NCBI GenBank assembly: GCA_001822815.1
Contig: MHSR01000013.1
Coordinates: 18,808 to 82,807, forward strand
DNA: 64,000 bases
Reading direction: 5' to 3'
Origin: Candidatus Terrybacteria bacterium RIFCSPHIGHO2_01_FULL_43_35
Lineage (GTDB): Bacteria; Patescibacteriota; Minisyncoccia; Terrybacterales; GWB1-40-14
Both the position numbers and the translations under genes were made by a program. Below the pieces are notes generated by a model. That model was not told where the DNA came from. It worked only from the letters and a program-made list of their open reading frames with translations, and did not search any database. Of this stretch, positions 2,615 through 39,880 are shown piece after piece (position 1 is the first letter of the stretch; every line of letters starts with the position of its first letter).

Positions 2615-3433
2615 CTAAGTCATTTCCCAGATCTTCTCTTCTGTTTTAGCAAGCGCTAGATTGAGTTGAGCAACATCAGTGGGATGAAAACCCTCCCTAA
2701 TCTCAGAGCCAGTAACCCATTTTGGATGATATTTGATAGCCACTCGTTCTTCGTAAACGATCTTACCTTTGCTGTTGTAGACTTGAATCAACCACTCCAG
2801 CGGTTCAAACCCGCTTATAGGTGAAAACACTTTAATTTTGAAATTGCTTACTTGCTTTTCGCTGTAAGGAAAAACTGGGTTCTTCCTATTACGGCGCGCG
2901 TCGTGGGGTATAAGAATTCCAGCCCATGAGGCTCCGGTGCCGGTGCCCGAAGCAAGTTTGCCTTCGCATTCAAGCATATTAACAGCGGTCCATACATGTT
3001 CCATATCTGCGCCAAATTCCATTGCGTTTTCTAGAATGGCGGATACAAGTGTGCCTGGAAGGTAGTTTGTATTACCGCCCAACCACTCATTGTTCTGTGA
3101 TCGCGTGAACAGTTCAAATACGGCATTCTTGAATGCATCGCTGATATAAGGAAACTTGCTTTCATGACTATCCAAATCGTGTTTTCCAGCAAGCTCTTGG
3201 CTGATTTCGTATCGCCGCAAAAACATTGCGGCGTTTATATATTTACAATCCCAACCATGCCAGGGATCAAATTCCCCGGATTGTTTATTTAGACCGCATT
3301 CGCACGCAACCATATATTCAACATAATCGATTTTTGCCGTCGTCTTAACCCAGACCACTTCGTGTCCATCAATAATAATCTTACTGATAACTTCAACTTT
3401 GTAATAGTCGTTTTCGTATGCATCCGGTAGCAT
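2615..3433 (-). CDS. Hypothetical protein (272 aa, cytoplasmic, no recognisable motif)
   Basis: Long ORF with good coding appearance, adjacent to parB. No family recognised. Confidence 0.5.
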   Translation of the reverse strand: MLPDAYENDYYKVEVISKIIIDGHEVVWVKTTAKIDYVEYMVACECGLNKQSGEFDPWHGWDCKYINAAMFLRRYEISQELAGKHDLDSHESKFPYISDAFKNAVFELFTRSQNNEWLGGNTNYLPGTLVSAILENAMEFGADMEHVWTAVNMLECEGKLASGTGTGASWAGILIPHDARRNRKNPVFPYSEKQVSNFKIKVFSPISGFEPLEWLIQVYNSKGKIVYEERVAIKYHPKWVTGSEIREGFHPTDVAQLNLALAKTEEKIWEMT

Positions 3434-7713: not shown

Positions 7714-8047
7714 AAATTAATATTTGTGTATGCGTTCTCCCAACCATCGCTTTTAGACTTTAAGTGCGCGTTGGGCTAAACAAAAATGCGCAATATATTT
7801 TTGTTCAAACCCAGCTCCAGTTTCTTAGAACCCTTTGGCTTATTTTCTTACCGATAAACGTGGTTCTACTAAATAAATCACTAATTTAAAAACTGGGGCT
7901 GGGGAAAGATCAATAAATGGTATATTGCCGCACTCCCTTGGTTTAGCATAACGCGGCAGAAAGCAACACAAGTGCTAAAAAACAAAAACCAGAATACTCG
8001 ATATTCTGATTTTAAGGATACAACGTGTGGGCTTAGTAGTCAATATA

Positions 8048-25468: not shown

Positions 25469-28400
25469 TTATTTCGTCTTTCTAATCCCAATCCATATTT
25501 TACTGTCGCCAAGTGAAAACTCCCGTTCAATGATAAATGTTTCGTTCTTGCGCTTCTCCCCCGTCTCCACCCGTTTGGCATAAACATCTTCTTTTATTTC
25601 CTGCGCGCGCTCCATAATATCGCGTCCAAAGTTTTCACTGGCCCAAATGCGTAAAGTTATCCTCTCTTTTGGTTTCAAACCGGCATCTTTGCGAGTGTTT
25701 TGTATCTGCCGTACAAGCTCGCGCATGGCGCCAAGCAACATGAGGGTAGGCGTTATGTGTATATTCAGAGCCATACCTTGTTCGGTATCACGAAGCCATT
25801 CTTGCCCATCTGGCAAAGAAGAAAGTATAGCCACGCTGCCAACGTTCATTTCTTCACAAAGAACTCTAAAAAGACCCTTATCTAATTTTTCTTTATTGGC
25901 GACTTTGGCCGTAAGAACCAGGGACGAAAGCGGCTGGCGCACTTTATGTCCGCTTTGAGCCCTTAGTTTAAGCGCAATCTGAATTTTGGCGCGCAAAGCC
26001 TCCATACTTTTTTCAAGTTTGGAATTTTGGGTTTTTTTATTTATTTGAGGCATGCGCTCAAGATGCACCGAAGCCTTAAGCCCCAAGCCCAGCCATAACT
26101 GCTCGGCAACAAACGGAGCAAACGGGGCGGCCAGCAAAGCGGTTTGTTTCAAAACAAAACTAAGAACTTCTGTCACCTGGACAAGCTCTTTTTTATTTTT
26201 GGGATGCTGAAATCTTTCGCGCGAGCGTCTAATATACCAGTTGGACAGGTCATCAATCACAAAAGCGCTTAAAGCACGTGTGGCGGCGGTGATATCATAA
26301 TTATCCATGCGCTTAATAATCTGTTCGCTTGCGGTGGCAAGACGCGATAATATCCATTTATCAAGAATATCGGTTGACGCTGGCGCTTTCGTATTTTTTA
26401 GCGCGCTAGCGGCGTAAAGCTTAAAAAAGGATAGAGAATTCCAGAGCGTACCCAAAAATTTCTGCTGCGCGTCTTTAAGTTCTTCTTCGTTGAAGCGCTT
26501 AGTGTCTGACGGGTGATTCATGGTGTAGAAATACCAACGTACGGCATCGGCCCCGTAAAGATCGGTCATATCCCACGGGCTTATCGCATTGCCCAGAGAC
26601 TTGGACATTTTTTTGCCATTTTTATCTACCACGTGACCGGTCACAACAACATTCTTATACGGCGTGCTTTTGCCGAGCAAAACAGAAACAGCCATGAGGG
26701 TATAAAACCATCCGCGCGTTTGATCTACGGCCTCGCAGATGAAATCAGCCGGGAAAGAAAGAGCTTTTTTATTTCCGCTCTTCTCAACGCGGTTTTTATT
26801 TTCAAAAGGATAATGCCACTGGGCAAAAGGCATGGCACCGGAATCAAACCAGACATCAATTACTTCACTCACCCGTTTCATAGGATGCGCGCACTTTTTA
26901 CACGCAAAAGTCAGGTCATCAACAAAAGGACGGTGCAGATCCAAACGGCCAGTATCGTCTGAAGGCGGCATTGAAGAAAGGATTTTTTCTTCTTTAGCAA
27001 AATCGGGATATGTCAGTTTGGGCGTACCGGCTTTTTTTGTCTTGAGATACGGCTCAACATATTCTTTATCCTCCGCGCCAAGCAAAATACCCTTAAGCAG
27101 CAGTAAGGGATCGCCGTGCCCAACCAACACAATGGTTTTATCGTTATAGATTTTCTCGAGATTCTGTATAAAATAATACATGCGGTTTCTAAGATCGAAC
27201 CAATTTTCGCCATTTAATGGCTTTTTGTGCCAGCGTTCGCCTGGCTTGTGTTCCAGGAAATCGTGATATTCTTTTATCGGCATGCTGTTGAATGCTCCCA
27301 AATCAAACTCGCGCAGTTCTGTTTCTTTTTTGGGCTTGATACCGCACGCTTTCCCCATAATTTCCGCCGTATCATTTGCCCTTTGAAGTGGTGAGGTGAA
27401 AATAATATCTGGTTTGATCCGCGCAATTCTTTTTGCGGCAGCGCGAGCCTGTTTTATACCGCGAGCGGTCAATGGATTACGTTTGTTTTCGGGCCAAGAA
27501 GAAACCCAACCCTGTACATTAGCCCTGGCTTGGGCATGACGAACCAAAATATATTTATTTTTTGTCTGTGAACGGGACAAAAGCTCTTTTATTGAGCCGA
27601 TGACTTCAGTTTGACCACATTGTTCGCATTTCCAAACAGGCAGTGGTATGCCCCAGTAGCGCTCGCGCGATATTGCCCAATCCTTAACTTCGTTCAGCCA
27701 CTCTCCGAATCTACCTCTTTTTATGTGTTCCGGTACCCAATTTACTTTTTCATTAGCTTCGCGGAGCTGTTTGCGCAATGCCGACATGCGTATGAACCAA
27801 CTTTGGCGGGCGTAATAAAGTAGTGGAGTTTTGCATCGCCAACAGAAAGGATAATCGTGAGTATAAAGTTCTTCCTTTAAAATAAGGTTGCGCTGATGTA
27901 AATATGAATTTATCACTATTTCTGCTTCTTTTGATTTGACCGGCAAGCCCGCCAGACCAGCATTAACCGTGTTCAAAAATCTTCCGTCCTCGCCTACTGT
28001 ATGGACTTTCGGCAAGCCAATCTTTGAGCCCAAATTATAATCGTCCTCGCCATACATGACCGCGGTATGAACTACGCCGGTGCCGTCTTCAGTGGTCACG
28101 AAATCGGCGGCATAAACTTTATGACTTTTTTCGTTTTTGGTTTCTGGGATATCAAAAAGGGGTTCATATTCAAGCCCCACTAACCTTGAACCCTTAATTT
28201 CGGCTAAAATATTTAACGGCTCTTTAAATAAACGCGCTGCGGCATCTTTAGCCAAAATATAAACTTCACCGCTGCCAACCTGCGCTTGTACGTAATCTAT
28301 GTCGTTGTTTACAGCCAAAGCCACGTTACCCGGCAAGGTCCAAGGAGTTGTAGTCCAACTTAATATGTAAGTATGTTTTTTGTCTTTTATTCTAAATTTA

Positions 28401-28999
28401 ATATAAACCGAATTTTCGGTGACCGATTCATATCCTTGAGCAACTTCGTGCGAAGCCAAAGCCGTACCACAGCGCGTACAATAAGGCACGACCTTAAAAT
28501 CCTGCTCCAATAATTTTTTATTCCATATCTCTTTTATTATTCGCCAAACGCTTTCTATGTAAGAATTATCGTAAGTAACGTATGGATCTGTAAGATCCAA
28601 CCATAAGCCTATACGCTCGGTTAAGCGCTGCCATTCATCTTTATAGCGCCATACGGATGCTTTGGCTTTCGCGTTAAACTCGGCAATGCCATAATCTTCA
28701 ATTTCTTGCTTGGTTTTGAAGCCCAATTCTTTCTCAACTCCAATTTCAACCGGCAAGCCATGTGTATCCCAACCGGCTTTACGCTCAACCAAAAAACCTT
28801 GCATGGTTTTGTAACGCAAAAAAGCATCTTTGATTGCGCGAACCAAAACATGATGTATACCTGGCTGGCCGTTGGCTGTGGGCGGACCTTCAAAAAAAAC
28901 AAAACGCGGTGCGCGGGCGCGCCTCTTTAAACTTTTGGCAAAGATTTTATTATCTTCCCAATATCTAAGTATTTCTTTTTCTTGTTCGGCAAAGTTCAT
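25469..28999 (-). CDS. ileS: Isoleucyl-tRNA synthetase with an inserted histidine-phosphatase-like domain
   Basis: The N-terminal class I signature region reads ...GIHHV..., and WAISRERYWG, KMSKSLGN and the anticodon-binding domain are all present. Total length is 1176 aa, including an extra domain at aa 482-660. Confidence 0.9.
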   Translation of the reverse strand: MNFAEQEKEILRYWEDNKIFAKSLKRRARAPRFVFFEGPPTANGQPGIHHVLVRAIKDAFLRYKTMQGFLVERKAGWDTHGLPVEIGVEKELGFKTKQEIEDYGIAEFNAKAKASVWRYKDEWQRLTERIGLWLDLTDPYVTYDNSYIESVWRIIKEIWNKKLLEQDFKVVPYCTRCGTALASHEVAQGYESVTENSVYIKFRIKDKKHTYILSWTTTPWTLPGNVALAVNNDIDYVQAQVGSGEVYILAKDAAARLFKEPLNILAEIKGSRLVGLEYEPLFDIPETKNEKSHKVYAADFVTTEDGTGVVHTAVMYGEDDYNLGSKIGLPKVHTVGEDGRFLNTVNAGLAGLPVKSKEAEIVINSYLHQRNLILKEELYTHDYPFCWRCKTPLLYYARQSWFIRMSALRKQLREANEKVNWVPEHIKRGRFGEWLNEVKDWAISRERYWGIPLPVWKCEQCGQTEVIGSIKELLSRSQTKNKYILVRHAQARANVQGWVSSWPENKRNPLTARGIKQARAAAKRIARIKPDIIFTSPLQRANDTAEIMGKACGIKPKKETELREFDLGAFNSMPIKEYHDFLEHKPGERWHKKPLNGENWFDLRNRMYYFIQNLEKIYNDKTIVLVGHGDPLLLLKGILLGAEDKEYVEPYLKTKKAGTPKLTYPDFAKEEKILSSMPPSDDTGRLDLHRPFVDDLTFACKKCAHPMKRVSEVIDVWFDSGAMPFAQWHYPFENKNRVEKSGNKKALSFPADFICEAVDQTRGWFYTLMAVSVLLGKSTPYKNVVVTGHVVDKNGKKMSKSLGNAISPWDMTDLYGADAVRWYFYTMNHPSDTKRFNEEELKDAQQKFLGTLWNSLSFFKLYAASALKNTKAPASTDILDKWILSRLATASEQIIKRMDNYDITAATRALSAFVIDDLSNWYIRRSRERFQHPKNKKELVQVTEVLSFVLKQTALLAAPFAPFVAEQLWLGLGLKASVHLERMPQINKKTQNSKLEKSMEALRAKIQIALKLRAQSGHKVRQPLSSLVLTAKVANKEKLDKGLFRVLCEEMNVGSVAILSSLPDGQEWLRDTEQGMALNIHITPTLMLLGAMRELVRQIQNTRKDAGLKPKERITLRIWASENFGRDIMERAQEIKEDVYAKRVETGEKRKNETFIIEREFSLGDSKIWIGIRKTK

Positions 29000-30256: not shown

Positions 30257-31285
30257 TTATTTATTTTCGGTACCACCAGTATCGGCGGTTTCTTCGCCAA
30301 GCCGCCGGAAAGAACCTTTGCCAAAAATACTCTCTATTAGACGCGCCAACGGAATTAAATTGCCGCTGAAATTTGCTCGCGCAAATATATCAAAAACCTC
30401 TTGCCTATTCTCAAATCGGCCGTGACTTTTTTCTATAATTTCATCTATCAATCTCCAAAGTTTATCACGTTCATTCTTGCGCCCAACAAATACATCTCTT
30501 CCTTTAGTTTTCGGTGGAAATTCAGCAACTATAGTAGCGATGGTTTCTTTGTCTGGTTCTATTTTCTCAAAAATCGTGAGTATTTCTCTGGCAGAAGGTA
30601 TAGAATATACTTCTTCCATGGCTTCCCGCTCATTCTGCTCTTGTGTTGGATTAAAGCGGTGAACAATATGCAATAATGATTCTTTCAATTTGTTTGTGGC
30701 TTCTATCTCTTCACTATATAATGGATTATTTTGCATTTCCTCGTCGTAAAATTTCTTGGCCAATATTTCGGCAATAGCCTCTTCTATATCTGAAAAGTGT
30801 TTTATGCGACTCTCTCGATCTGATACGATAATGCCGCTTCTATACATACGGTGCTTCTTTTGCGCATCTATTTGCGCAGCTTTGTAGGACAATTGGTGGA
30901 ACATTTCATGCACAAGCGTTGTGGCTACATCTACATTCGACTCCAGATCGCGATCCACTACTATCTCTTGTGCCAAAGACCTGTGTATACCGCCGTAGAA
31001 TTCCCCGTTGGTGAGTTCGGATGCTCCTCCTGATCTTACAAAATGTATTTTATGTGGCGGTATTGGCTTAGGGTCTCCGCCGTAAAACTTTGCCATTCTA
31101 TATGCAAATTCTTCTGCGTTTTGAATAATCGTCTTGTCCTGTTCAGTAAGCCGTATTTCGTACTTGGCAATATCTTGATCGCCAATTTGCAGAAGTTCCT
31201 CTTGTAATTCGTGCTTAAGTCTAGCTCGCTCTCCCTCTGTTCCGCCCACCACTCTTTCAAATTGTGTTTCAAAATTTTCTAGCAT
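30257..31285 (-). CDS. Hypothetical cytoplasmic protein with an HExxH zinc-metallopeptidase-like motif
   Basis: A single HEMFH motif in a 342-aa acidic protein. No signal peptide. Confidence 0.45.
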   Translation of the reverse strand: MLENFETQFERVVGGTEGERARLKHELQEELLQIGDQDIAKYEIRLTEQDKTIIQNAEEFAYRMAKFYGGDPKPIPPHKIHFVRSGGASELTNGEFYGGIHRSLAQEIVVDRDLESNVDVATTLVHEMFHQLSYKAAQIDAQKKHRMYRSGIIVSDRESRIKHFSDIEEAIAEILAKKFYDEEMQNNPLYSEEIEATNKLKESLLHIVHRFNPTQEQNEREAMEEVYSIPSAREILTIFEKIEPDKETIATIVAEFPPKTKGRDVFVGRKNERDKLWRLIDEIIEKSHGRFENRQEVFDIFARANFSGNLIPLARLIESIFGKGSFRRLGEETADTGGTENK

Positions 31286-31519
31286 GATTCCATAAAACCA
31301 TGGATTTATTGCTTGCGCAAACCTTTCGATTTACTCGGGTCTTCGACTCCCGCGGGACTGAGTCCTCGGGACGAACGTCTGAGAGTCTCAGACTCGTTGA
31401 GGTAAACAAAAACAGCTCTATCTAAAACAGAACTGCTTTTGCGCCAAATATCTTTAACAAAAAGTATTTGAGCGTGGAACGAATTTACTTATCTTTTCTT
31501 ATTTTCAAAGTTGGTGTTG

Positions 31520-31750
31520 GTGGTGGAACTAGCCTTGACCTGGCCTAGGCTGGCTCGCGAGACGAACGGGGTTGGGCTTTCAGCCTGGTTGGGAACAGCT
31601 CTCGTTGTATCCCGTACCTATTTCTACCACCCGCTTTTATCCCTCTAGGGGATCCGATCTTCCGGTATCAGACAAACCGTCGTATTAAGGAAATCGGATG
31701 AGCTGTCAATCCGAAACCTTTTTCCACCACCAACCAAAAACGAATTTTTA
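31520..31750. repeat. Copy 1 of a roughly 230-nt structured repeat in a GC-rich islet
   Basis: Shares ordered blocks with 32595-32830: GGGCTTTC(A/G)GCCTG, TACCACCC, GATCTT(C/G)CGGTATCAG(A/G)AAACCGTC, CCACCACCAACCAAAA. Confidence 0.6.
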
Positions 31751-31866
31751 TAAACGCGCTTTTGGCTAATGACGAGATTTATACATGTTTGAAAATATTT
31801 TTGAGATTAACCAGCCCTAATTTCAGATTTGCTAAAATCAGGGCTGGACTGACTTTTGTCGAGGTT

Positions 31867-32073
31867 TCACTTCTCCGCCTCGACCTTCGGATCTTCCAGC
31901 TCGACACCGAGCTCACGCGCCGCGCCTTCGGCCAGCTCGCGCTTCTCCGCGGGCGAGAGCTTGTCGATCTCGACCTTGAACCCGGCCATGTCCTGGCCAG
32001 AGAGCTTGCCGAAGTACTTCCAGAGCACCACGAGCTCGGTCGCCTTGGCGGCTTTGGCGCCAGAGGTGTCCAT
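31867..32073 (-). CDS. Small GC-rich protein (68 aa) with a strong Shine-Dalgarno, hypothetical
   Basis: About 62% GC with high GC3. GAAGGAG lies 8 nt upstream of the ATG. A hairpin overlaps the stop codon. Confidence 0.55.
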   Translation of the reverse strand: MDTSGAKAAKATELVVLWKYFGKLSGQDMAGFKVEIDKLSPAEKRELAEGAARELGVELEDPKVEAEK

Positions 32074-32274
32074 CTTTGGACTCCTTCATTGCTTGATACG
32101 GCTTAAACAATCTCTACTAATTGCAAGAGTTGTTGCCGCGCCTCAACAAACTTCCTGTATTAGAAATTTGCTCAAGTGCGGAACTACTGGTTTTTTCTTT
32201 AAATATGGTGAAGCGAGGGGAAATTCTTACTTGAGTTCCCCTCGCTTACTTAACGATCCTTGTGGATCTGGTGA

Positions 32275-32544
32275 CTAGAGCAGTGCGAGGCGGACGCGTT
32301 CAAGTTTCGCGTGCCAAGCCCCTGAACCACCAGAGATGCGTGTCTCGCGCGTCGCAAGATCAGCCATCTCACGATCCCGCACCACAGCCACGCTGACGGT
32401 GGGCGCCTGATTGCTCGATCCGTGGTTGTAGGCGAAACCTTTCTGGCGTGCCACCTTGCGGATGTAGGTAAGCTTCCTGCTGCGCAGGAAGGAATTTGGG
32501 TCTGCCTTGACCTGGTTCTTCTTGGTGTGGCCTTCTGAGCTCAC
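32275..32544 (-). CDS. Small GC-rich basic protein (89 aa), GTG start with a strong Shine-Dalgarno, hypothetical
   Basis: TAAGGAGGAGAC-GTG start context. GC-rich stem terminator (AGCGAGGGGAA/TTCCCCTCGCT) downstream. Confidence 0.55.
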   Translation of the reverse strand: MSSEGHTKKNQVKADPNSFLRSRKLTYIRKVARQKGFAYNHGSSNQAPTVSVAVVRDREMADLATRETRISGGSGAWHAKLERVRLALL

Positions 32545-32594
32545 GTCTCCTCCTTACTTGGCTTTTGCCTGCCCGCTTCTTTGGTTTTAGTTAT

Positions 32595-32830
32595 TTAAAG
32601 GTGCGGATGGTGATGGGACTGGTATAGCGTAAGACGCCGAACGGCGTCACGTGCTTAACCGATGAATGGGACTGGGCTTTCGGCCTGCTCGTTTCAGAGT
32701 AGCTCTACTCCAGTAGCTTTCAGTACCACCCATATTTATCAACACGCTCTTTTTGCCTGAGGCATGGCCTGATCTTGCGGTATCAGGAAACCGTCATCTT
32801 CCCCATCACCACCAACCAAAACAAACATGT
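32595..32830. repeat. Copy 2 of the roughly 230-nt structured repeat
   Basis: See copy 1. Located immediately 5' (minus-strand sense) of the 89-aa gene. Confidence 0.6.
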
Positions 32831-33397
32831 TGTTGATGCAAACTTGCTTTGGTTGATGGCAATCAATGATTTAGTTTTTAAAAAACATTCTCATACAAGA
32901 CGAGACCCTCGGGCATGATCTTTTAGAAGATCACACCAGGGAGTCTCCTCTCGGAGTCTTACCTTCACCGCATCACGCTTAGCCCGCCAAAATTTTAAAA
33001 TAAAATTTGTATGTTTGCGGGGGTTGATGCGTTTTGACAGATGCTACACGCCAAACCGACGCTTCGGTTAAATCGCGGATGCCTCTGACACTGCAAATCA
33101 TTATACAAACCTATTGCATCCGCTCACGAAAGAATCAGTAAGGCGGTGACGACACCAAGCCTCCCAAGCTACTTGATGTCCTGCCTATGCATAGAAACTG
33201 TCAATGCATACTGTCAATAACTAAAGTATATCATATAAGTTTTAACTTGTCAAGAGCAAGAGGGTTGCTTTAGGCTTGTTTTGGATATTTTCTTTATTCT
33301 AAAAGGGTTATATTAAATTGTGATTTGTCAGAATATGCTGACATGTATGGGTTGAGTATGGTACTTCTAATTCAAACTTCGATATCGCCAGGCACTA

Positions 33398-33426
33398 TTG
33401 ACATTTATACCACATAATGATATAAT
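33398..33426 (+). promoter_or_regulatory. Consensus sigma70 promoter (TTGACA-17-TATAAT)
   Basis: TTGACA at 33398-33403, a 17-nt spacer, and TATAAT at 33421-33426, read directly. Confidence 0.7.
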
Positions 33427-33432
33427 TTTATT

Positions 33433-33797
33433 GTGCGGCATAAATGACCGCATGAAAACAAGCTCTCTTGAAGGAAGAGAGCAAGGAGTAGCGTTATGGG
33501 CAACGGGTAGGTAGCGTCTGAAGCAAAAGAATGTGGTATGCAAAACAAAGGCGCAAGGTAACTATTTACTAGACGCGCCCAAGATGAAAGCGGTACCAAT
33601 GGCTCTAGATCAAGCGCTGCCTTAACCCTCGGTTGTCAAACAGAGGATCGCAGAGCGATAAGAGCCCTAAAGACAAGCTTCAACGTTAACCCCTGGAAAA
33701 GGCCGCGCCTATCCAGACAAAAAACCCAAATCAAGCTCTCTTTGTTCTTTCTTCACCAAGGCCGCCACTCTACTCGAGAGGCGGCCTAAACTTTTAT
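33433..33797 (+). ncRNA. Candidate roughly 365-nt non-coding RNA of unknown class
   Basis: Bounded by the consensus promoter and an intrinsic terminator (GGCCGCC-13-GGCGGCC followed by TAAACTTTTAT, 33757-33797). No ORF longer than 20 codons. Internal hairpins are present, e.g. CTCTCTTgaaggAAGAGAG. Confidence 0.5.
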
Positions 33798-33851
33798 ACA
33801 AAAACTGCTTTTTATGCAGAGTTTAAAAGACGGAGCACTGCTTTCTGTTAT

Positions 33852-34580
33852 TTATTTCCAAGCCAGAGAAAACAAGGCTCTCAACGTTTCAGCAATTTCC
33901 TTACTTTCAATAATGATGCCCATGGGTTTCCCGCGAAAGACGGCCATGGCTACTTTGTTACCATAAATAATCAAGTCGCTAGCAATACCCGCTTTGAGAG
34001 GCAAATATTTTGTTTCAACTCCCTGCGCATATTTCGCAATCGGTCCGGCTTTATGCGTATAGAATGTCTGTCCGCGAACATGTTTCTTGGAGCGACGCAA
34101 ACGGTAAACTTCACGCTCACTTTCAGAAAATAGCTCTTCATATTCGTCTCGTGGGAATATTTCCACTATAGAACTAGTCTTGGTGCGCAGAAAATCTTCC
34201 TGCATGGCCTTCAGGCCTTCCTTGCCCTCGAAAAAACGCACGCGCGGATGTTCCCTGGCCTGATCATAAAGGGCTTTAAGACGAGGAAGAATTTTTTCGG
34301 TTTCGGTTCGTTTAATTTTTAATTCCTGCTCGTTGCGATCTAGAAGTCGCATCAGCCTTTCGGGAAATTCTGCTGAAAGCAATCTCTTGCTTCCCTGTTC
34401 GTGCCAACTAACCAAACCAAGCTTAGCTAATTCTTCAAGAGCCAAATATGCCGTGGGTCTTCGTATGCCAGATTTCTTGGCGATATCTTGTACAGTTGCC
34501 TGACCCAGTTCCAAAACCGCCAAATAAACTCTGGCTTCCTTATCCGAAAGTCCTATGCTTTTTAGTTCTGGCTCGAACAT
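33852..34580 (-). CDS. TrmB-family transcriptional regulator
   Basis: N-terminal winged-helix TrmB signature (LSDKEARVYLAVLELGQATVQDIAKKSGIRRPTAYLALEELAKLGLV). Confidence 0.55.
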   Translation of the reverse strand: MFEPELKSIGLSDKEARVYLAVLELGQATVQDIAKKSGIRRPTAYLALEELAKLGLVSWHEQGSKRLLSAEFPERLMRLLDRNEQELKIKRTETEKILPRLKALYDQAREHPRVRFFEGKEGLKAMQEDFLRTKTSSIVEIFPRDEYEELFSESEREVYRLRRSKKHVRGQTFYTHKAGPIAKYAQGVETKYLPLKAGIASDLIIYGNKVAMAVFRGKPMGIIIESKEIAETLRALFSLAWK

Positions 34581-34900
34581 GTGCTAGTTGTTGCCCACGA
34601 CCCAGCTCTAATTTCTGAGCGTTTGGGCATTTCTAAAATTATAATGTATAATTTTATCTTGGTTTAAAACTTTTATCGAATTGTTTTTGGTAAATTAGGG
34701 CTGGATCGCGGTTGCAACGACGTGCATCTCTTCGAGTTCATCGAATCTGAGATTCTCTGAATCGAATGATCTGAAGACTCATCAGACGTTCGTCTCTTCG
34801 AGCCTGAGGGCTCCGCAGAGCCTGAACGGCCCGAGGACTCAGTCCCGAGGGAGTCTGAACGACCTAAGGAGCAAAGCGACGAGGGATTACTTTTCATTTA
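34581..34900. repeat. Composite repeat region (family A start-box plus degenerate serine-codon-like tandem units) abutting the TrmB-like gene start
   Basis: GTGCTAGTTGTTGCCCACGA lies directly after the start codon on the + strand. The 34700-34890 stretch resembles 39720-39800 and 31330-31400 (gcatctcttcgag..ctgaagactc..cgagggattac). Confidence 0.6.
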
Positions 34901-34977
34901 TTATAGCATTAAAAAGATTGAGCCCGGCCCGAGTTTTATCTAAAACTGGAGCTGGGCTCTTTGTTTTGGCTTAGCGG

Positions 34978-35151
34978 TTAAAACCAGATGACGGCCTGCG
35001 TTCTACCAGACGAACCTGCACCGGAACAGGAACCAGAATCAGGCGCGGCGCTGGTCTAGGTGACACGCGATCCAGAACGCTTGCGCCGAAATTCTTGGCT
35101 ATCCGCGAGAGCTTGGCTCCGCGGGATGAACGATTCACCATGGAATGTATC
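34978..35151 (-). CDS. Small GC-rich ORF (57 aa) with a perfect Shine-Dalgarno, hypothetical
   Basis: AAGGAGGATACATTCC-ATG context and about 58% GC. Below the ORF-track length cutoff. Confidence 0.4.
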
Positions 35152-35315
35152 CTCCTTACGGCTTGCTGATATGAAAAGTTCTGTTGGGGATAACGAGAAC
35201 TACTAAATACTATAAGTTTAAGGACTAAGTTTAAGAGTCTCGTTACCCCACTAATTACATTATAACACTAAAATAATGTTTGTCAAGAATTCGCCTCGCC
35301 TCCGTTTATCTGTTT

Positions 35316-37058
35316 TTACATTCTTTCCGGAGCATGAATTCCCATTAGGCGCATGGTGTTGGCCAAAACTATTTTTGTGGCGCGCACCAATGCTAAACGC
35401 GCAAGAGTTAAATCCTTATCCTCGCCTATAACTTGGCAATCGCGATAAAAAGCCGAAAAAACCGTGGCCACATCCGTGGCATAAACTGGCAGACGGCTGA
35501 CTTCATATTTGGAGGCAATATCTTCTACTAATTCCGGCAGAATAATTAACTTCTTTATCAACTGCGTTTCTGAAGGGTGCGCCAATTTTAAAAGCAAGTT
35601 ATTTCTTGCCGACCCCTCAACAATCCCCTCTTGTTTGGCTTGCCCTGAGCCAGCCGAACTGGCTTTGGCCAGAATGCTTGCACATCTCGCATGAGCATAC
35701 TGCACATAATAGACCGGGTTTTTGTCGGATTGTTCGCGTGCCAAAGTCATATCAAAATCCATATGGCTATTTGGTTCGCGCATCAAAAAGAAGAAGCGCG
35801 CAGCATCCAAGCCTACAGTATCAACTAATTCTTCAAGGGTTATGAATGTTCCGGTACGCTTGGACATGCGCACTTCTTGCCCGTTTTCCATCAAACGCAC
35901 AAGCTGAACCAAAATAAAATCGAATTTTCTTGAGCTCGAAACAAGCCCCAAGGATGCAAAAACTCTGTTCAACGTAAACATATGGGCATGGTGGTCGGCG
36001 CCGACAATATCTATGACTTTATCAAAACGGCGCCGCTTAAATTTATCCCAGTGATAAGCTATATCCGGAAGCAAATATGTGGGCTCGCCGTTTGATTTAA
36101 TCAGAACTCTTTCGTTAATATTGTCGTTTTCTTTAAGTCGCAACCATTGGGCTCCTTCCTTTTTTTCGATCAAATGTTTTTTCTGAAGAGCTTCATAAGC
36201 CTCCTTAATAAGCCCCTGGCGATGTAGGCTTTTCTCCGAAAACCACACGTCGAAACGTATTTTAAGTTTTTTTGTTATTCTTTTTATATCTTCCAATATC
36301 ATCTTTGAAGCCGTGCGGCTTATTGCTTCCGGGTTCAATTCCTCCGGCTTAAACTTGGAAATTTGCAGTTTATAAGCCAGTTCCTGTACGTATCCTCCGG
36401 GATAAAGCTCTTCGGGCGGATAAGGAATTTTGTAATCCCCGCCCGAAACCTTACCGGCTGCAATTACCGACCAGCCCAATTTTTTTATCTGCTCCCCGGC
36501 ATCATTTACATAATATTCACGAGTAATTTTGTATCCGGCAAAATCTAAAACGTTAGACAGAGCATCACCCAAAAACCCTCCACGTCCGTTTCCCAAAGTA
36601 GGCGGACCGGTAGGATTTGCTGATATAAATTCTACCTGCACATTTTGCTTATGTCCGATATCTATACGGCCATAATTGTTTTTAGCGCTTAAAATATTCT
36701 TAATTTGTTTGGCTAGATATTCAGGAGAGAGTGAAAAATTTATAAACCCCGGTCCGGCAACTTTTACGCTTTTTACTACGGCATTAAAGCGCTTATTTGT
36801 TTCAAGTCCGGTAATAATATTTTCGGCTACGGCATGAGGAGATTTTTTGCCTATTGCGGCCAAAACCATGGCGATATTTGAAGCGTAATCGCCGTATTGG
36901 ATATTGCTGGCTGGTTCAACGGTAAAATTTATTTTTTCCATGTGAAAGCCGGCATTTTGAGACGCCGCAATAATACTCTTTATCAAAAATTGCTTGGTTG
37001 TGGCTACCTCGCCGGATCCTTTAGTAAATATCTTGTCCTTGGGTGATTTTGTGGCCAT
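35316..37058 (-). CDS. argS: Arginyl-tRNA synthetase
   Basis: SANPTGP signature region, DALS-type anticodon-binding C-terminus. 580 aa. Confidence 0.85.
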   Translation of the reverse strand: MATKSPKDKIFTKGSGEVATTKQFLIKSIIAASQNAGFHMEKINFTVEPASNIQYGDYASNIAMVLAAIGKKSPHAVAENIITGLETNKRFNAVVKSVKVAGPGFINFSLSPEYLAKQIKNILSAKNNYGRIDIGHKQNVQVEFISANPTGPPTLGNGRGGFLGDALSNVLDFAGYKITREYYVNDAGEQIKKLGWSVIAAGKVSGGDYKIPYPPEELYPGGYVQELAYKLQISKFKPEELNPEAISRTASKMILEDIKRITKKLKIRFDVWFSEKSLHRQGLIKEAYEALQKKHLIEKKEGAQWLRLKENDNINERVLIKSNGEPTYLLPDIAYHWDKFKRRRFDKVIDIVGADHHAHMFTLNRVFASLGLVSSSRKFDFILVQLVRLMENGQEVRMSKRTGTFITLEELVDTVGLDAARFFFLMREPNSHMDFDMTLAREQSDKNPVYYVQYAHARCASILAKASSAGSGQAKQEGIVEGSARNNLLLKLAHPSETQLIKKLIILPELVEDIASKYEVSRLPVYATDVATVFSAFYRDCQVIGEDKDLTLARLALVRATKIVLANTMRLMGIHAPERM

Positions 37059-37552: not shown

Positions 37553-37935
37553 GGGGATGCCGGGCTTCGAAAAGGAAAAGTGTAGCGCGCGCAGGACGAG
37601 GCCGATCAACAACCTCGAAAAAAGTTGATCACTTACAAGTGCAAACTTGTTCGCAAAAGTGCAGAACGCTTTCCGCGTTCCAGCATTTGCTCTTGCTTAA
37701 ATTAGCTTGAGCCATCCGGCCCTGATGCTCGATAAGGAAACGCCGGGTGCCATACATCGAGCTTGACTAGCATAAGGACCTCGCTTGCGCTACGCGACTC
37801 AAACAGGGGTAGGAATATCTGAAATTCTGCCGTTCTTTGACCGGATATTCTGACAAAACATTACAGAATGGCTAATCCTGTAGAAGCGTGCCGCATAATT
37901 TTTCTTTGACGTGGGTTCAACTCCCACCATCTCCA
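37553..37935 (+). ncRNA. ssrA: tmRNA (SsrA)
   Basis: 5' GGGGATGCCGGGCTTCGA... pairs with 3' ...GACGTGGGTTCAACTCCCACCATCTCCA (tRNA-like domain). An internal tag frame at 37640-37699 ends ...AFALA-TAA. Located immediately after smpB. Confidence 0.8.
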
Positions 37936-38026
37936 CAAACCATGCCGACAATTTATAAATAGTTTTAACTATCTGCAAAAGTTTAATTATTATCAGCGCC
38001 GTCCGCAGTTTCAACGAGGACCGCGC

Positions 38027-39693: not shown

Positions 39694-39880
39694 GTGTTAG
39701 TTGTTGCCCGCGAGTTTGCTCGCGGATGCAACATGCATCTCTTCGAGTCTGAAGACTCTTCAGAGTCTGAACGACCCGAGCGAAGTCGAGGGATTACCTG
39801 CCAATTTTGCCCTCGCGGCAGCGGGGTGCAAAATTGTGCATCCTGAGCGGAGCGAAGGATTACCTAAAATTATACCATCA
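39694..39880. repeat. Family A repeat element abutting the NUDIX start codon
   Basis: GTGTTAGTTGTTGCCCGCGAG start-box. Internal units gcatctcttcgagtctgaagactcttcagagtctgaacgac, and CGAGGGATTACCT / CGAAGGATTACCT ends. Confidence 0.65.

Follow-up and report, generated by a model that had tools for sequence, protein, structure and literature searches.

The stretch of DNA analyzed here, called the window, comprises 64,000 nucleotides of contig MHSR01000013.1 (assembly GCA_001822815.1, positions 18,808-82,807), and all coordinates given below are positions within it. The window is a chromosomal segment of a Patescibacteria bacterium and includes the genes for IleRS, ArgRS (35316-37058, minus strand), SmpB together with tmRNA (37553-37938), and IF3. 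Placed between a 2.5-kb region devoid of long open reading frames (ORFs; 31286-33851) and a minus-strand gene of the TrmB family is a compact promoter-to-terminator unit on the plus strand, which is the subject of this report. An earlier note on this DNA had singled it out as an orphan transcript unit and as a candidate novel noncoding RNA. The orphan unit is supported: it is syntenic in relatives, is strongly structured, and lies outside all described RNA families. The strict term "noncoding" does not hold up as well, because the conserved part of the unit is a Shine-Dalgarno (SD) sequence followed by an ORF of only four to six codons, here called the mini-ORF.

Anatomy of the unit

The components of the unit are collected in Table 1. 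The promoter described in the earlier note is present and also carries an extended -10 element (TG at 33418-33419), and transcription is predicted to start near G33433. Perfect TTGACA-N16-18-TATAAT promoters occur twice in the window, where shuffled sequences lead to an expectation of 0.03. The two hairpins noted earlier, TGCGG/CCGCA and CTCTCTT/AAGAGAG, are found as well, and the 3' arm of the second can alternatively pair with a CU-rich segment near the 3' end. The GC-rich terminator stem (33760-33786) is likewise there, and its U tract is interrupted both in the window and in a syntenic relative, L001. A simple terminator scan does not flag the window terminator because the U run is interrupted or weak. 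The interruption might be a hint of read-through or antisense transcription, and as such is only suggestive.

The unit is predicted to fold far better than chance. Minimum free energies were compared with those of shuffled sequences to obtain z-scores. The 365-nucleotide plus strand folds with -129.8 kcal/mol, compared with -96.9 ± 5.4 for 100 shuffles, none of which is as good (z = -6.07); the opposite strand has z = -3.3. Judging by these sequence features, the unit is a genuine RNA gene, predicted to be strongly promoted and independently transcribed into a stable RNA of about 365 nucleotides.

Read on the minus strand, the CTCTCTT/AAGAGAG hairpin (33462-33482) with UUGUUUUCAU after it has the score of a terminator. 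A transcript of the TrmB-like gene that passes 33786-33760 could stop at this site, and would then be antisense to almost the whole unit.

The earlier statements that no ORF exceeds 19 codons and that none has an SD sequence need correction. A 30-codon ORF with a GTG start (33533-33625) and a 20-codon ORF with an ATG start (ending at 33514) exist; both lack an SD, and neither is conserved in L001. A small-protein mRNA, that is, one with a conserved SD-led ORF of at least 10-20 codons, was rejected on these grounds. By contrast with these longer frames, an AAGGAG sequence stands 7 nucleotides ahead of the four-codon ORF. Gene callers sometimes overprint such units with spurious ORFs, of 117 amino acids (aa) in L071 and of 79 aa in L073.

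Table 1. Features of the unit in the window, and short ORFs at the corresponding sites of related loci
Feature	Position	Strand	Details
Sigma70-type promoter	33398..33426	+	-35 TTGACA 33398-33403, 17-nt spacer, -10 TATAAT 33421-33426
5'-terminal hairpin	33433..33453	+	GUGCGG...CCGCAU; TGCGG 33434-33438 / CCGCA 33448-33452
Local hairpin	33462..33482	+	GCUCUCUU-GAAGG-AAGAGAGC; arms GCTCTCTT 33462-33469 / AAGAGAGC 33475-33482
Shine-Dalgarno sequence	33483..33488	+	AAGGAG, 7 nt before AUG
Mini-ORF	33496..33510	+	AUG GGC AAC GGG UAG (MGNG, stop); AUG start, UAG stop; core conserved across family
Variable structured body	33511..33734	+	No detectable similarity to bodies of other members
CU-rich segment	33735..33754	+	GCUCUCUUUGUUCUUUCUUC; in minimum-energy fold pairs with purine-rich 33469-33488, closing the molecule over the SD
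Terminator hairpin and interrupted U tract	33760..33797	+	Stem GGCCGCC 33760-33766 / GGCGGCC 33780-33786, then TAAACTTTTAT
Convergent partner gene	33852..34580	-	242-aa TrmB-family winged helix-turn-helix protein; TrmB winged helix-turn-helix domain
Mini-ORF, L001			MGTGG, stop (GUG GGU ACA GGU GGG UGA)
Mini-ORF, L004			MGTGG, stop
Mini-ORF, L067			MGLG, stop
Mini-ORF, L071			MGAGRP, stop
Mini-ORF, L072			MGTGAC, stop
Mini-ORF, L073			MGTG, stop
Short ORF, L028			TrmB-like protein 44% identical; 26 codons, ending ...SDGG, stop
Short ORF, L029			TrmB-like protein 43% identical; MGNHS, stop
Short ORF, L030			Magasanikbacteria, TrmB-like protein 37% identical; UUG start; MFNG, stop

Related units in other Patescibacteria

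Contigs or genomes with TrmB-like relatives or with matches to the search patterns are named L001-L073, and about 13 loci of the TrmB-like subfamily were compared. The family in the strict sense consists of seven lineages (the window, L001, L004, L067, L071, L072, and L073), and three more distant members are L028, L029, and L030. Homologues of the TrmB-like gene carry the labels "Patescibacteria group bacterium" or "Candidatus Azambacteria." Relatives also occur in the groundwater samples behind ERZ909605/ERR2108714 and in the SRR22387xxx-SRR22388xxx runs.

L001 is a groundwater contig whose TrmB-like orthologue is 74% identical in protein sequence, and the gene order SmpB-tmRNA-IF3-L20-ArgRS-TrmB-...-IleRS is conserved. 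The syntenic site contains, on the equivalent strand, a TTGACA-17-TATAAT promoter with TG, a body of about 300 nucleotides, and a strong terminator. An identical TGCGG...CCGCA hairpin begins 7 nucleotides past the -10 box, a spacing that matches that in the window. This unit folds with z = -5.0, and the other units tested also fold better than their shuffles (z = -4.5, -3.0, and -10.0).

The homology across related genomes that the earlier note called for is found in the syntenic position of the unit, and it does not extend to the RNA body, even in L001. When the window unit is aligned globally with that of L001, similarity is confined to the promoter, the 5' hairpin, and the A-rich/terminator region at the 3' end, and the A-rich stretch is accounted for by the U tract of the terminator on the opposite strand. 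The bodies can hardly be aligned at all, although DNA identity in the adjacent gene is 70%.

In all ten lineages, the convergent TrmB-like gene is the next feature past the unit, and no gene on the same strand follows. The terminators lie 12-62 nucleotides from the stop codon of this gene in every lineage (62 in the window). Genes that flank the pair differ between lineages, and include ArgRS, RNase H/RecJ, PBP2/MreC, and others. Thus, the RNA and the TrmB-like gene themselves appear to be the conserved module.

A metagenome-wide scan for the promoter plus TGCGG..CCGCA returned 21 matches, of which one is a true homologue, the already known L001 contig; the remainder are unrelated promoter-plus-hairpin units, mostly phage-like. 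A scan of GTDB representatives with the TrmB-like protein found no close relative (best 44%) and yielded the distant members L028-L030 as well as negative controls. A scan of viral contigs found no relatives. Locus L065, a 99%-identical contig, belongs to the same species; its unit carries no substitutions, and it is therefore uninformative.

A conserved SD-led mini-ORF

The conserved core was defined as an SD, 3-12 nucleotides, ATG or GTG, GGN NNN GGN, and an early stop codon. When about 620 kb were searched on both strands, this pattern matched only in seven independent lineages. Each of the seven matches falls within a unit that runs from promoter to terminator and converges on a TrmB-like gene with 48-74% identity to the one in the window. 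Dropping the stop requirement gave only six further matches, all at other sites and all in ORFs of at least 29 codons. Each of the seven strict units has exactly one near-consensus promoter, located 69-516 nucleotides ahead of the mini-ORF.

The way in which the core varies looks like coding constraint. In codons 2 and 4 of the strict mini-ORFs, GG is fixed and the third position can be C, U, A, or G. Both AUG and GUG serve as starts, and UAG, UGA, and UAA are all used as stops. The distance from SD to start ranges from 4 to 11 nucleotides, and the spacer sequences are unrelated. An in-frame stop follows codon 4 within three codons in seven of seven units, compared with two of seven in each of the other frames. 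L029 and L030 preserve an SD-led short ORF while partly losing the pattern of G tracts, which argues against a purely RNA-level G-rich motif.

Family members share a near-consensus sigma70 promoter, usually a 5' hairpin, a structured body, an SD, an ORF of four to six codons, and an intrinsic terminator. The body varies in sequence, length (about 240-640 nucleotides), and position, the SD is mostly paired in the predicted full-length fold, and the ORFs begin with the pattern M-(G/F)-x-(G). Judged by the yardstick of the earlier note, which would class the RNA as an mRNA if a product of 20 aa or less were translated from it, this conserved SD and ORF points towards a mini-ORF or leader-peptide-type RNA, for which translation is predicted.

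Predicted pairing of the SD

Partition-function calculations for the window give the SD an unpaired probability of 0.87-0.91 in nascent RNAs of 83-123 nucleotides and of 0.00 in the full-length RNA. The purine-rich segment 33469-33488 can pair either with 33462-33469 or with 33735-33754, and the terminator stem is not involved. In most other members, the SD is unpaired with a probability of 0.02-0.24 throughout. A CCCUCC-type anti-SD directly upstream pairs with the SD in L004, L067, L071, L072, and L073, and in L001 a downstream UCCUCCU segment does so. Several members bear additional SD-like/anti-SD-like pairs. Ribosome access to the mini-ORF is therefore predicted by these models to be restricted and, in the window, to be confined to the co-transcriptional period.

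Comparison with described RNA families

The Rfam search that the earlier note recommended was run, and no described family was matched. In the region 31000-35400, nothing reached the gathering score, and whatever appeared at E <= 10 was at chance level. In nine related loci, the units were also unmatched, and only tmRNA and tRNAs were recovered, so these RNAs are easily detected in the same sequences. Bacterial RNase P RNA (RNaseP_bact_a/b) matches neither at the gathering score nor at E <= 10 in the window or the nine loci, and small or large bacterial signal recognition particle (SRP) RNA has no match in either. For 6S RNA there is also no Rfam match; the predicted fold is multi-branched rather than a single rod, and the members span 240-640 nucleotides. 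A sponge of the CsrB/CsrC type was rejected with only four GGA sequences in the unit, and the sole Csr-like Rfam match (CsrC, E 0.76, 13 bits compared with a 61-bit cut-off) is outside the unit, at 31721-31978. As far as covariance models can tell, the lack of Rfam matches excludes RNase P, SRP, 6S, Csr, and other described families.

The searchable literature on structured RNAs of the candidate phyla radiation (CPR), TrmB in Patescibacteria, glycine leader peptides, and minigenes contains no description of this RNA family. The family is thus not previously described in Rfam or in the searchable literature.

The TrmBL2-like partner gene

In a confident model of the 242-aa protein (predicted local distance difference test score, pLDDT, of 92), the entire chain can be aligned with TrmBL2 (E 2.7e-13), and TrmB itself aligns more weakly. 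The sequence search of the PDB with this protein gave no match, so that a fold search was needed. TrmBL2 is an archaeal chromatin protein or global repressor.

In L067 (~460-490), L071 (~2975-3003), and L072 (~1640-1666), the -10 box of the TrmB-like gene is 7-10 nucleotides before the ATG, and there is no SD. This suggests that the TrmB-like mRNAs of these loci may be leaderless.

The second perfect consensus promoter of the window (35259-35286, minus strand) is on the far side of the TrmB-like gene. It drives an SD-led 56-aa ORF (34971-35141, minus strand) ahead of that gene. L001 has an equivalent layout with a 48-aa ORF, and the two ORFs have a common tail, ...PAPxPVPxQxRLVxRR. The idea that the 56-aa ORF is a paralogue of an 89-aa ORF elsewhere in the window was not confirmed, as BLASTP shows no similarity.

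A sister clade with a protein gene

In the sister clade formed by L005, L068, and L069, the convergent position is occupied by a longer, Gly-rich upstream ORF (uORF) that touches or overlaps the start of a gene for a basic protein of about 150 aa. These uORFs encode MRRFLKQNGGNGGYG, MFNGGGDGG, and MRRMFGGDGG, each followed by a stop. The protein has no Pfam match, and a tblastn search with it found no remnant in the units of the window, L001, L004, and L067. In a neighbor-joining tree of the TrmB-like proteins, loci with only the mini-ORF occupy several deep branches, down to 37% identity, and the clade with the uORF and 150-aa gene is nested within the unit-bearing TrmB-like subfamily. TrmB-like homologues outside the subfamily lack the unit. 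The spread of mini-ORF-only loci over deep branches, the nested position of the other clade, and the lack of a protein remnant make the stand-alone arrangement look older. On this evidence, the stand-alone mini-ORF RNA looks like an older and stably inherited state rather than a recent wreck.

A leader motif (CUCUUUCCCAGAGUC-hairpin-GGAUUNNGGGAAGGAGG) also occurs twice in the sister clade, ahead of ORFs of 116 and 153 aa (L005 6850-7560, minus strand, and likewise in L068 and L069). The second copy holds the Gly-rich uORF, and neither the 116-aa nor the 153-aa protein has a Pfam match.

Interpretation

The reading that we favor, with a probability of roughly one half, is that the unit specifies a mini-ORF RNA that is functional and is coupled to the TrmBL2-like gene. 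The analysis shows the anatomy of the unit, its inheritance together with that gene, the codon-like conservation of the core, and the predicted pairing of the SD. From these we infer that ribosomes translate the mini-ORF, that this translation acts as the switch, and that the output falls on the TrmBL2-like gene. The RNA would act as a translation-gated riboregulator. In the window, the SD and AUG would be free only in the nascent RNA, until segment 33735-33754, once made, covers the SD. In most other members, the upstream CCCUCC-type anti-SD would shut the SD at once. Depending on whether a ribosome loads on the mini-ORF, the transcript might then fold differently, persist for a longer or shorter time, and end at the shared terminator or pass it, and the outcome would set the amount of convergent transcription or antisense RNA that enters the TrmBL2-like gene. 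Because there is no downstream cistron and the convergent TrmBL2-like gene is the sole constant neighbor, control of the convergent transcription or antisense RNA that enters this gene would be the most economical output. A specific output through read-through or antisense RNA, which is suggested by analogy, is by itself rather unlikely.

Several observations weigh against this proposal. Trans pairing between the unit and the translation start of the TrmB-like gene shows no significant complementarity (z about 0). Upstream of the promoters there is no shared operator; TGTCA-N8-TGACA occurs in the window, L001, and L072 only, where it overlaps -35-like hexamers. A convergent layout around one common terminator is likewise a typical product of compact genomes. 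No common terminator/anti-terminator (1:2/2:3/3:4) scheme is found across members, in which between about 60 and about 270 nucleotides separate the mini-ORF from the terminator. A four-codon ORF contains very little information and, with the SD predicted to be sequestered, may rarely be translated. The G-rich sequence GGAGG..UGGG..GG could instead be a motif at the RNA level. Finally, the known lineages are few, namely the window and at least nine other Patescibacteria lineages (about ten), and close ones are scarce among them because the GTDB representatives yielded no close relative.

The objection that the G-rich sequence is an RNA-level motif leads to a rather unlikely alternative, in which the RNA is purely noncoding and acts in trans, by binding protein, or as a sponge. 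The GGAGG...AUGGG..GG core would then not be a translated ORF but an RNA motif, such as a two-tier G-quadruplex or a site bound by a protein or the ribosome. The very strong folding signal across members, burial of the SD in predicted full-length folds, the extra SD-like/anti-SD-like pairs of several members, and the four G tracts in most cores are all as this explanation would have it. However, it does not account for the codon-like periodicity of the core, with its in-frame stop in seven of seven units and its use of all three stop codons, nor for an SD-to-start spacing as variable as that of genuine ribosome-binding sites. L029 (MGNHS) and L030 (MFNG) drop the G tracts, yet retain the SD-led short ORF, and in the sister clade a related short, Gly-rich ORF serves as a normal uORF that abuts a protein gene. 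The same sister clade raises the prospect that the unit is a functionless, decaying remnant, namely the leader and uORF of a protein operon of the L005/L068/L069 type whose coding part was lost. Such decay would explain why the body is not conserved and why a Gly-rich uORF with an ORF of about 150 aa is present at the equivalent position in a related clade. It is improbable, because no trace of the 150-aa protein is detected by tblastn in the four units searched, and because the tree would require many independent losses. Moreover, every lineage has kept a consensus promoter and a terminator as well as the SD, the start, and the early stop, and the units fold far better than shuffled sequences.

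Even less probable is that the peptide of four to six residues is itself the product, and that the RNA is its abundant short mRNA, as for mccA. The strong promoter, tiny SD-led ORF, and terminator do resemble the mccA arrangement, and the peptides loosely share the N-terminal M-G-(N/T)-G. The C-termini, by contrast, are not conserved (G, P, C, or S), there is no gene for a modifying enzyme or exporter nearby, the SD is predicted to be sequestered, and the large structured parts of the RNA would be left without a role. A diverged housekeeping RNA (RNase P, SRP, or 6S RNA) that escapes the covariance models has almost no probability. Its appeal is the size, which is near that of RNase P RNA, the strong promoter, and a closing helix that joins the 5' and 3' ends. 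Against these points stand the lack of any Rfam match even at E <= 10 in sequences where tmRNA and tRNAs are found readily, member lengths that range from about 240 to about 640 nucleotides, and the lack of a conserved core, with bodies that are unalignable despite 74% identity between the neighboring proteins.

If the mini-ORF RNA is indeed functional, it is possible, albeit doubtful, that it represents a new class of RNA gene: a stand-alone, highly expressed, structured RNA with an ORF of four to six codons that serves as a ribosome-read switch and is inherited together with a TrmBL2-like chromatin or regulator protein throughout a deep clade of Patescibacteria. Within this class, the RNA would perhaps be a leader peptide without an operon, whose control over its partner would run by way of convergent transcription or an antisense RNA; this part of the proposal is equally tentative. 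CPR/Patescibacteria have tiny genomes and almost no characterized regulation. An RNA-protein module long kept in evolution would therefore, if real, be among the first candidate regulatory circuits specific to them. It would also imply that four-codon ORFs, which gene callers and short-ORF screens throw away, could be conserved functional elements, and that a leader-peptide-type switch is possible without any downstream gene. Were the new-class reading true, few known conserved ORFs would be as short as this one.

Other elements nearby

A leader-like element of about 240 nucleotides is found in three copies, two in the window (32590-32830 and 31495-31745, both minus strand) and one in L001 (7905-8175, plus strand). 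The copies precede SD-led genes: an 89-aa ORF (32544..32275), a 342-aa ORF (31285..30257), and a 74-aa ORF in L001. Common to the copies are a 5' GUUGGUGGUG, which is complementary to a 3' GU(U/C)CCA(U/C)CACCA, and an internal GCCCA..CCC.UUC.UC block, and there is no Rfam match. From its sequence, this element is itself a candidate cis-regulatory RNA.

An element of about 60 nucleotides (GAGACUCCCNGGUGUGAUC...GAUCAUNCCCGAGGGNCUC) occurs at 32892-32953 in minus-strand sense and in L001 at 7720-7788. The two are about 75-85% identical in unalignable surroundings. The element is within the transcript from a divergent promoter (33253..33225, minus strand; TTGACA-17-TATACT plus TG) that is also found in L001. 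A GC-rich motif of 29 nucleotides (GACUCCCNCGGGACUGAGUCCUCGGG) forms an inverted pair at 31345-31373 and 34827-34855, which are 3.4 kb apart and 93% complementary. Positions 34793-34835, which overlap this motif, are 84% identical to 39738-39780. The IleRS gene (25469-28999, minus strand) encodes a His_Phos_1 domain inserted at residues 484-647, and the architecture in L001 is identical.

Some loci were by-catch of the metagenome promoter-hairpin scan. L015 (JAEIGA010872048.1) has an array of four consensus promoters at 312-950, each with a unit of about 90-150 nucleotides. Loci L009-L011, L014, L017, L020, L022, L023, and L025 are phage-like contigs with a conserved promoter, hairpin, structured leader of about 150 nucleotides, and terminator before a gene.

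Comparison with known systems

Leader-peptide attenuators of the trpL/hisL type, the catA86 leader (MVKTD), and erm leaders have leader-peptide or antibiotic-responsive leader ORFs. The unit is similar in having a very short SD-led ORF within alternative structures and an intrinsic terminator after it, such that the position of a ribosome would choose the fold. An SD-led ORF ahead of a terminator is present in the window and conserved in 7-10 lineages, and the sister clade uses a related ORF as a uORF. In contrast to attenuators, no same-strand gene follows the terminator in any of the ten lineages, no stretch of regulatory codons is evident apart from two or three Gly, and no consistent 1:2/2:3/3:4 pairing scheme is found. 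The four-codon ORF is, to our knowledge, shorter than any known leader ORF.

AspocR of Listeria is a riboswitch-controlled antisense RNA convergent to the regulator gene pocR. It resembles the unit in that a promoter, sensing RNA, and terminator are located downstream of and convergent to a transcription-factor gene, so that read-through would be antisense. This placement, convergent and immediately downstream, is found in every lineage of the family. The unit differs in that a mini-ORF and ribosome would be the sensor, with no ligand aptamer or conserved aptamer-like body, and in that read-through is a prediction.

The mccA gene is a seven-codon gene for the microcin C precursor with ribosome-controlled termination. 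It shares with the unit a tiny SD-led ORF and a short, terminator-ended transcript, whose abundance is predicted for the unit. In contrast, the unit has no mccB-like partners, a nonconserved C-terminus, large structured parts, and an SD predicted to be sequestered. The hok mRNA belongs to type I toxin-antitoxin systems and is subject to fold-back inhibition, in which the ribosome-binding site of the full-length RNA is locked by pairing between distant 5' and 3' parts. The window unit is similar, as its SD is predicted to be free only in nascent RNA, whereas other members use a local anti-SD hairpin, and there is no toxin-sized ORF and no gene for an antisense partner RNA. The bar minigenes of phage lambda and the E-peptide, a pentapeptide encoded by 23S rRNA, act via peptidyl-tRNA drop-off or macrolide resistance. 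They also consist of an SD-led ORF of two to six codons in a structured RNA, with an effect exerted by translation and not by a stable protein, but nothing ties the unit to drop-off or macrolide resistance. The RNA is best filed with leader-peptide or mini-ORF regulatory RNAs, among which its stand-alone arrangement, the shortness of its ORF, and its fixed TrmBL2-like partner are unusual.

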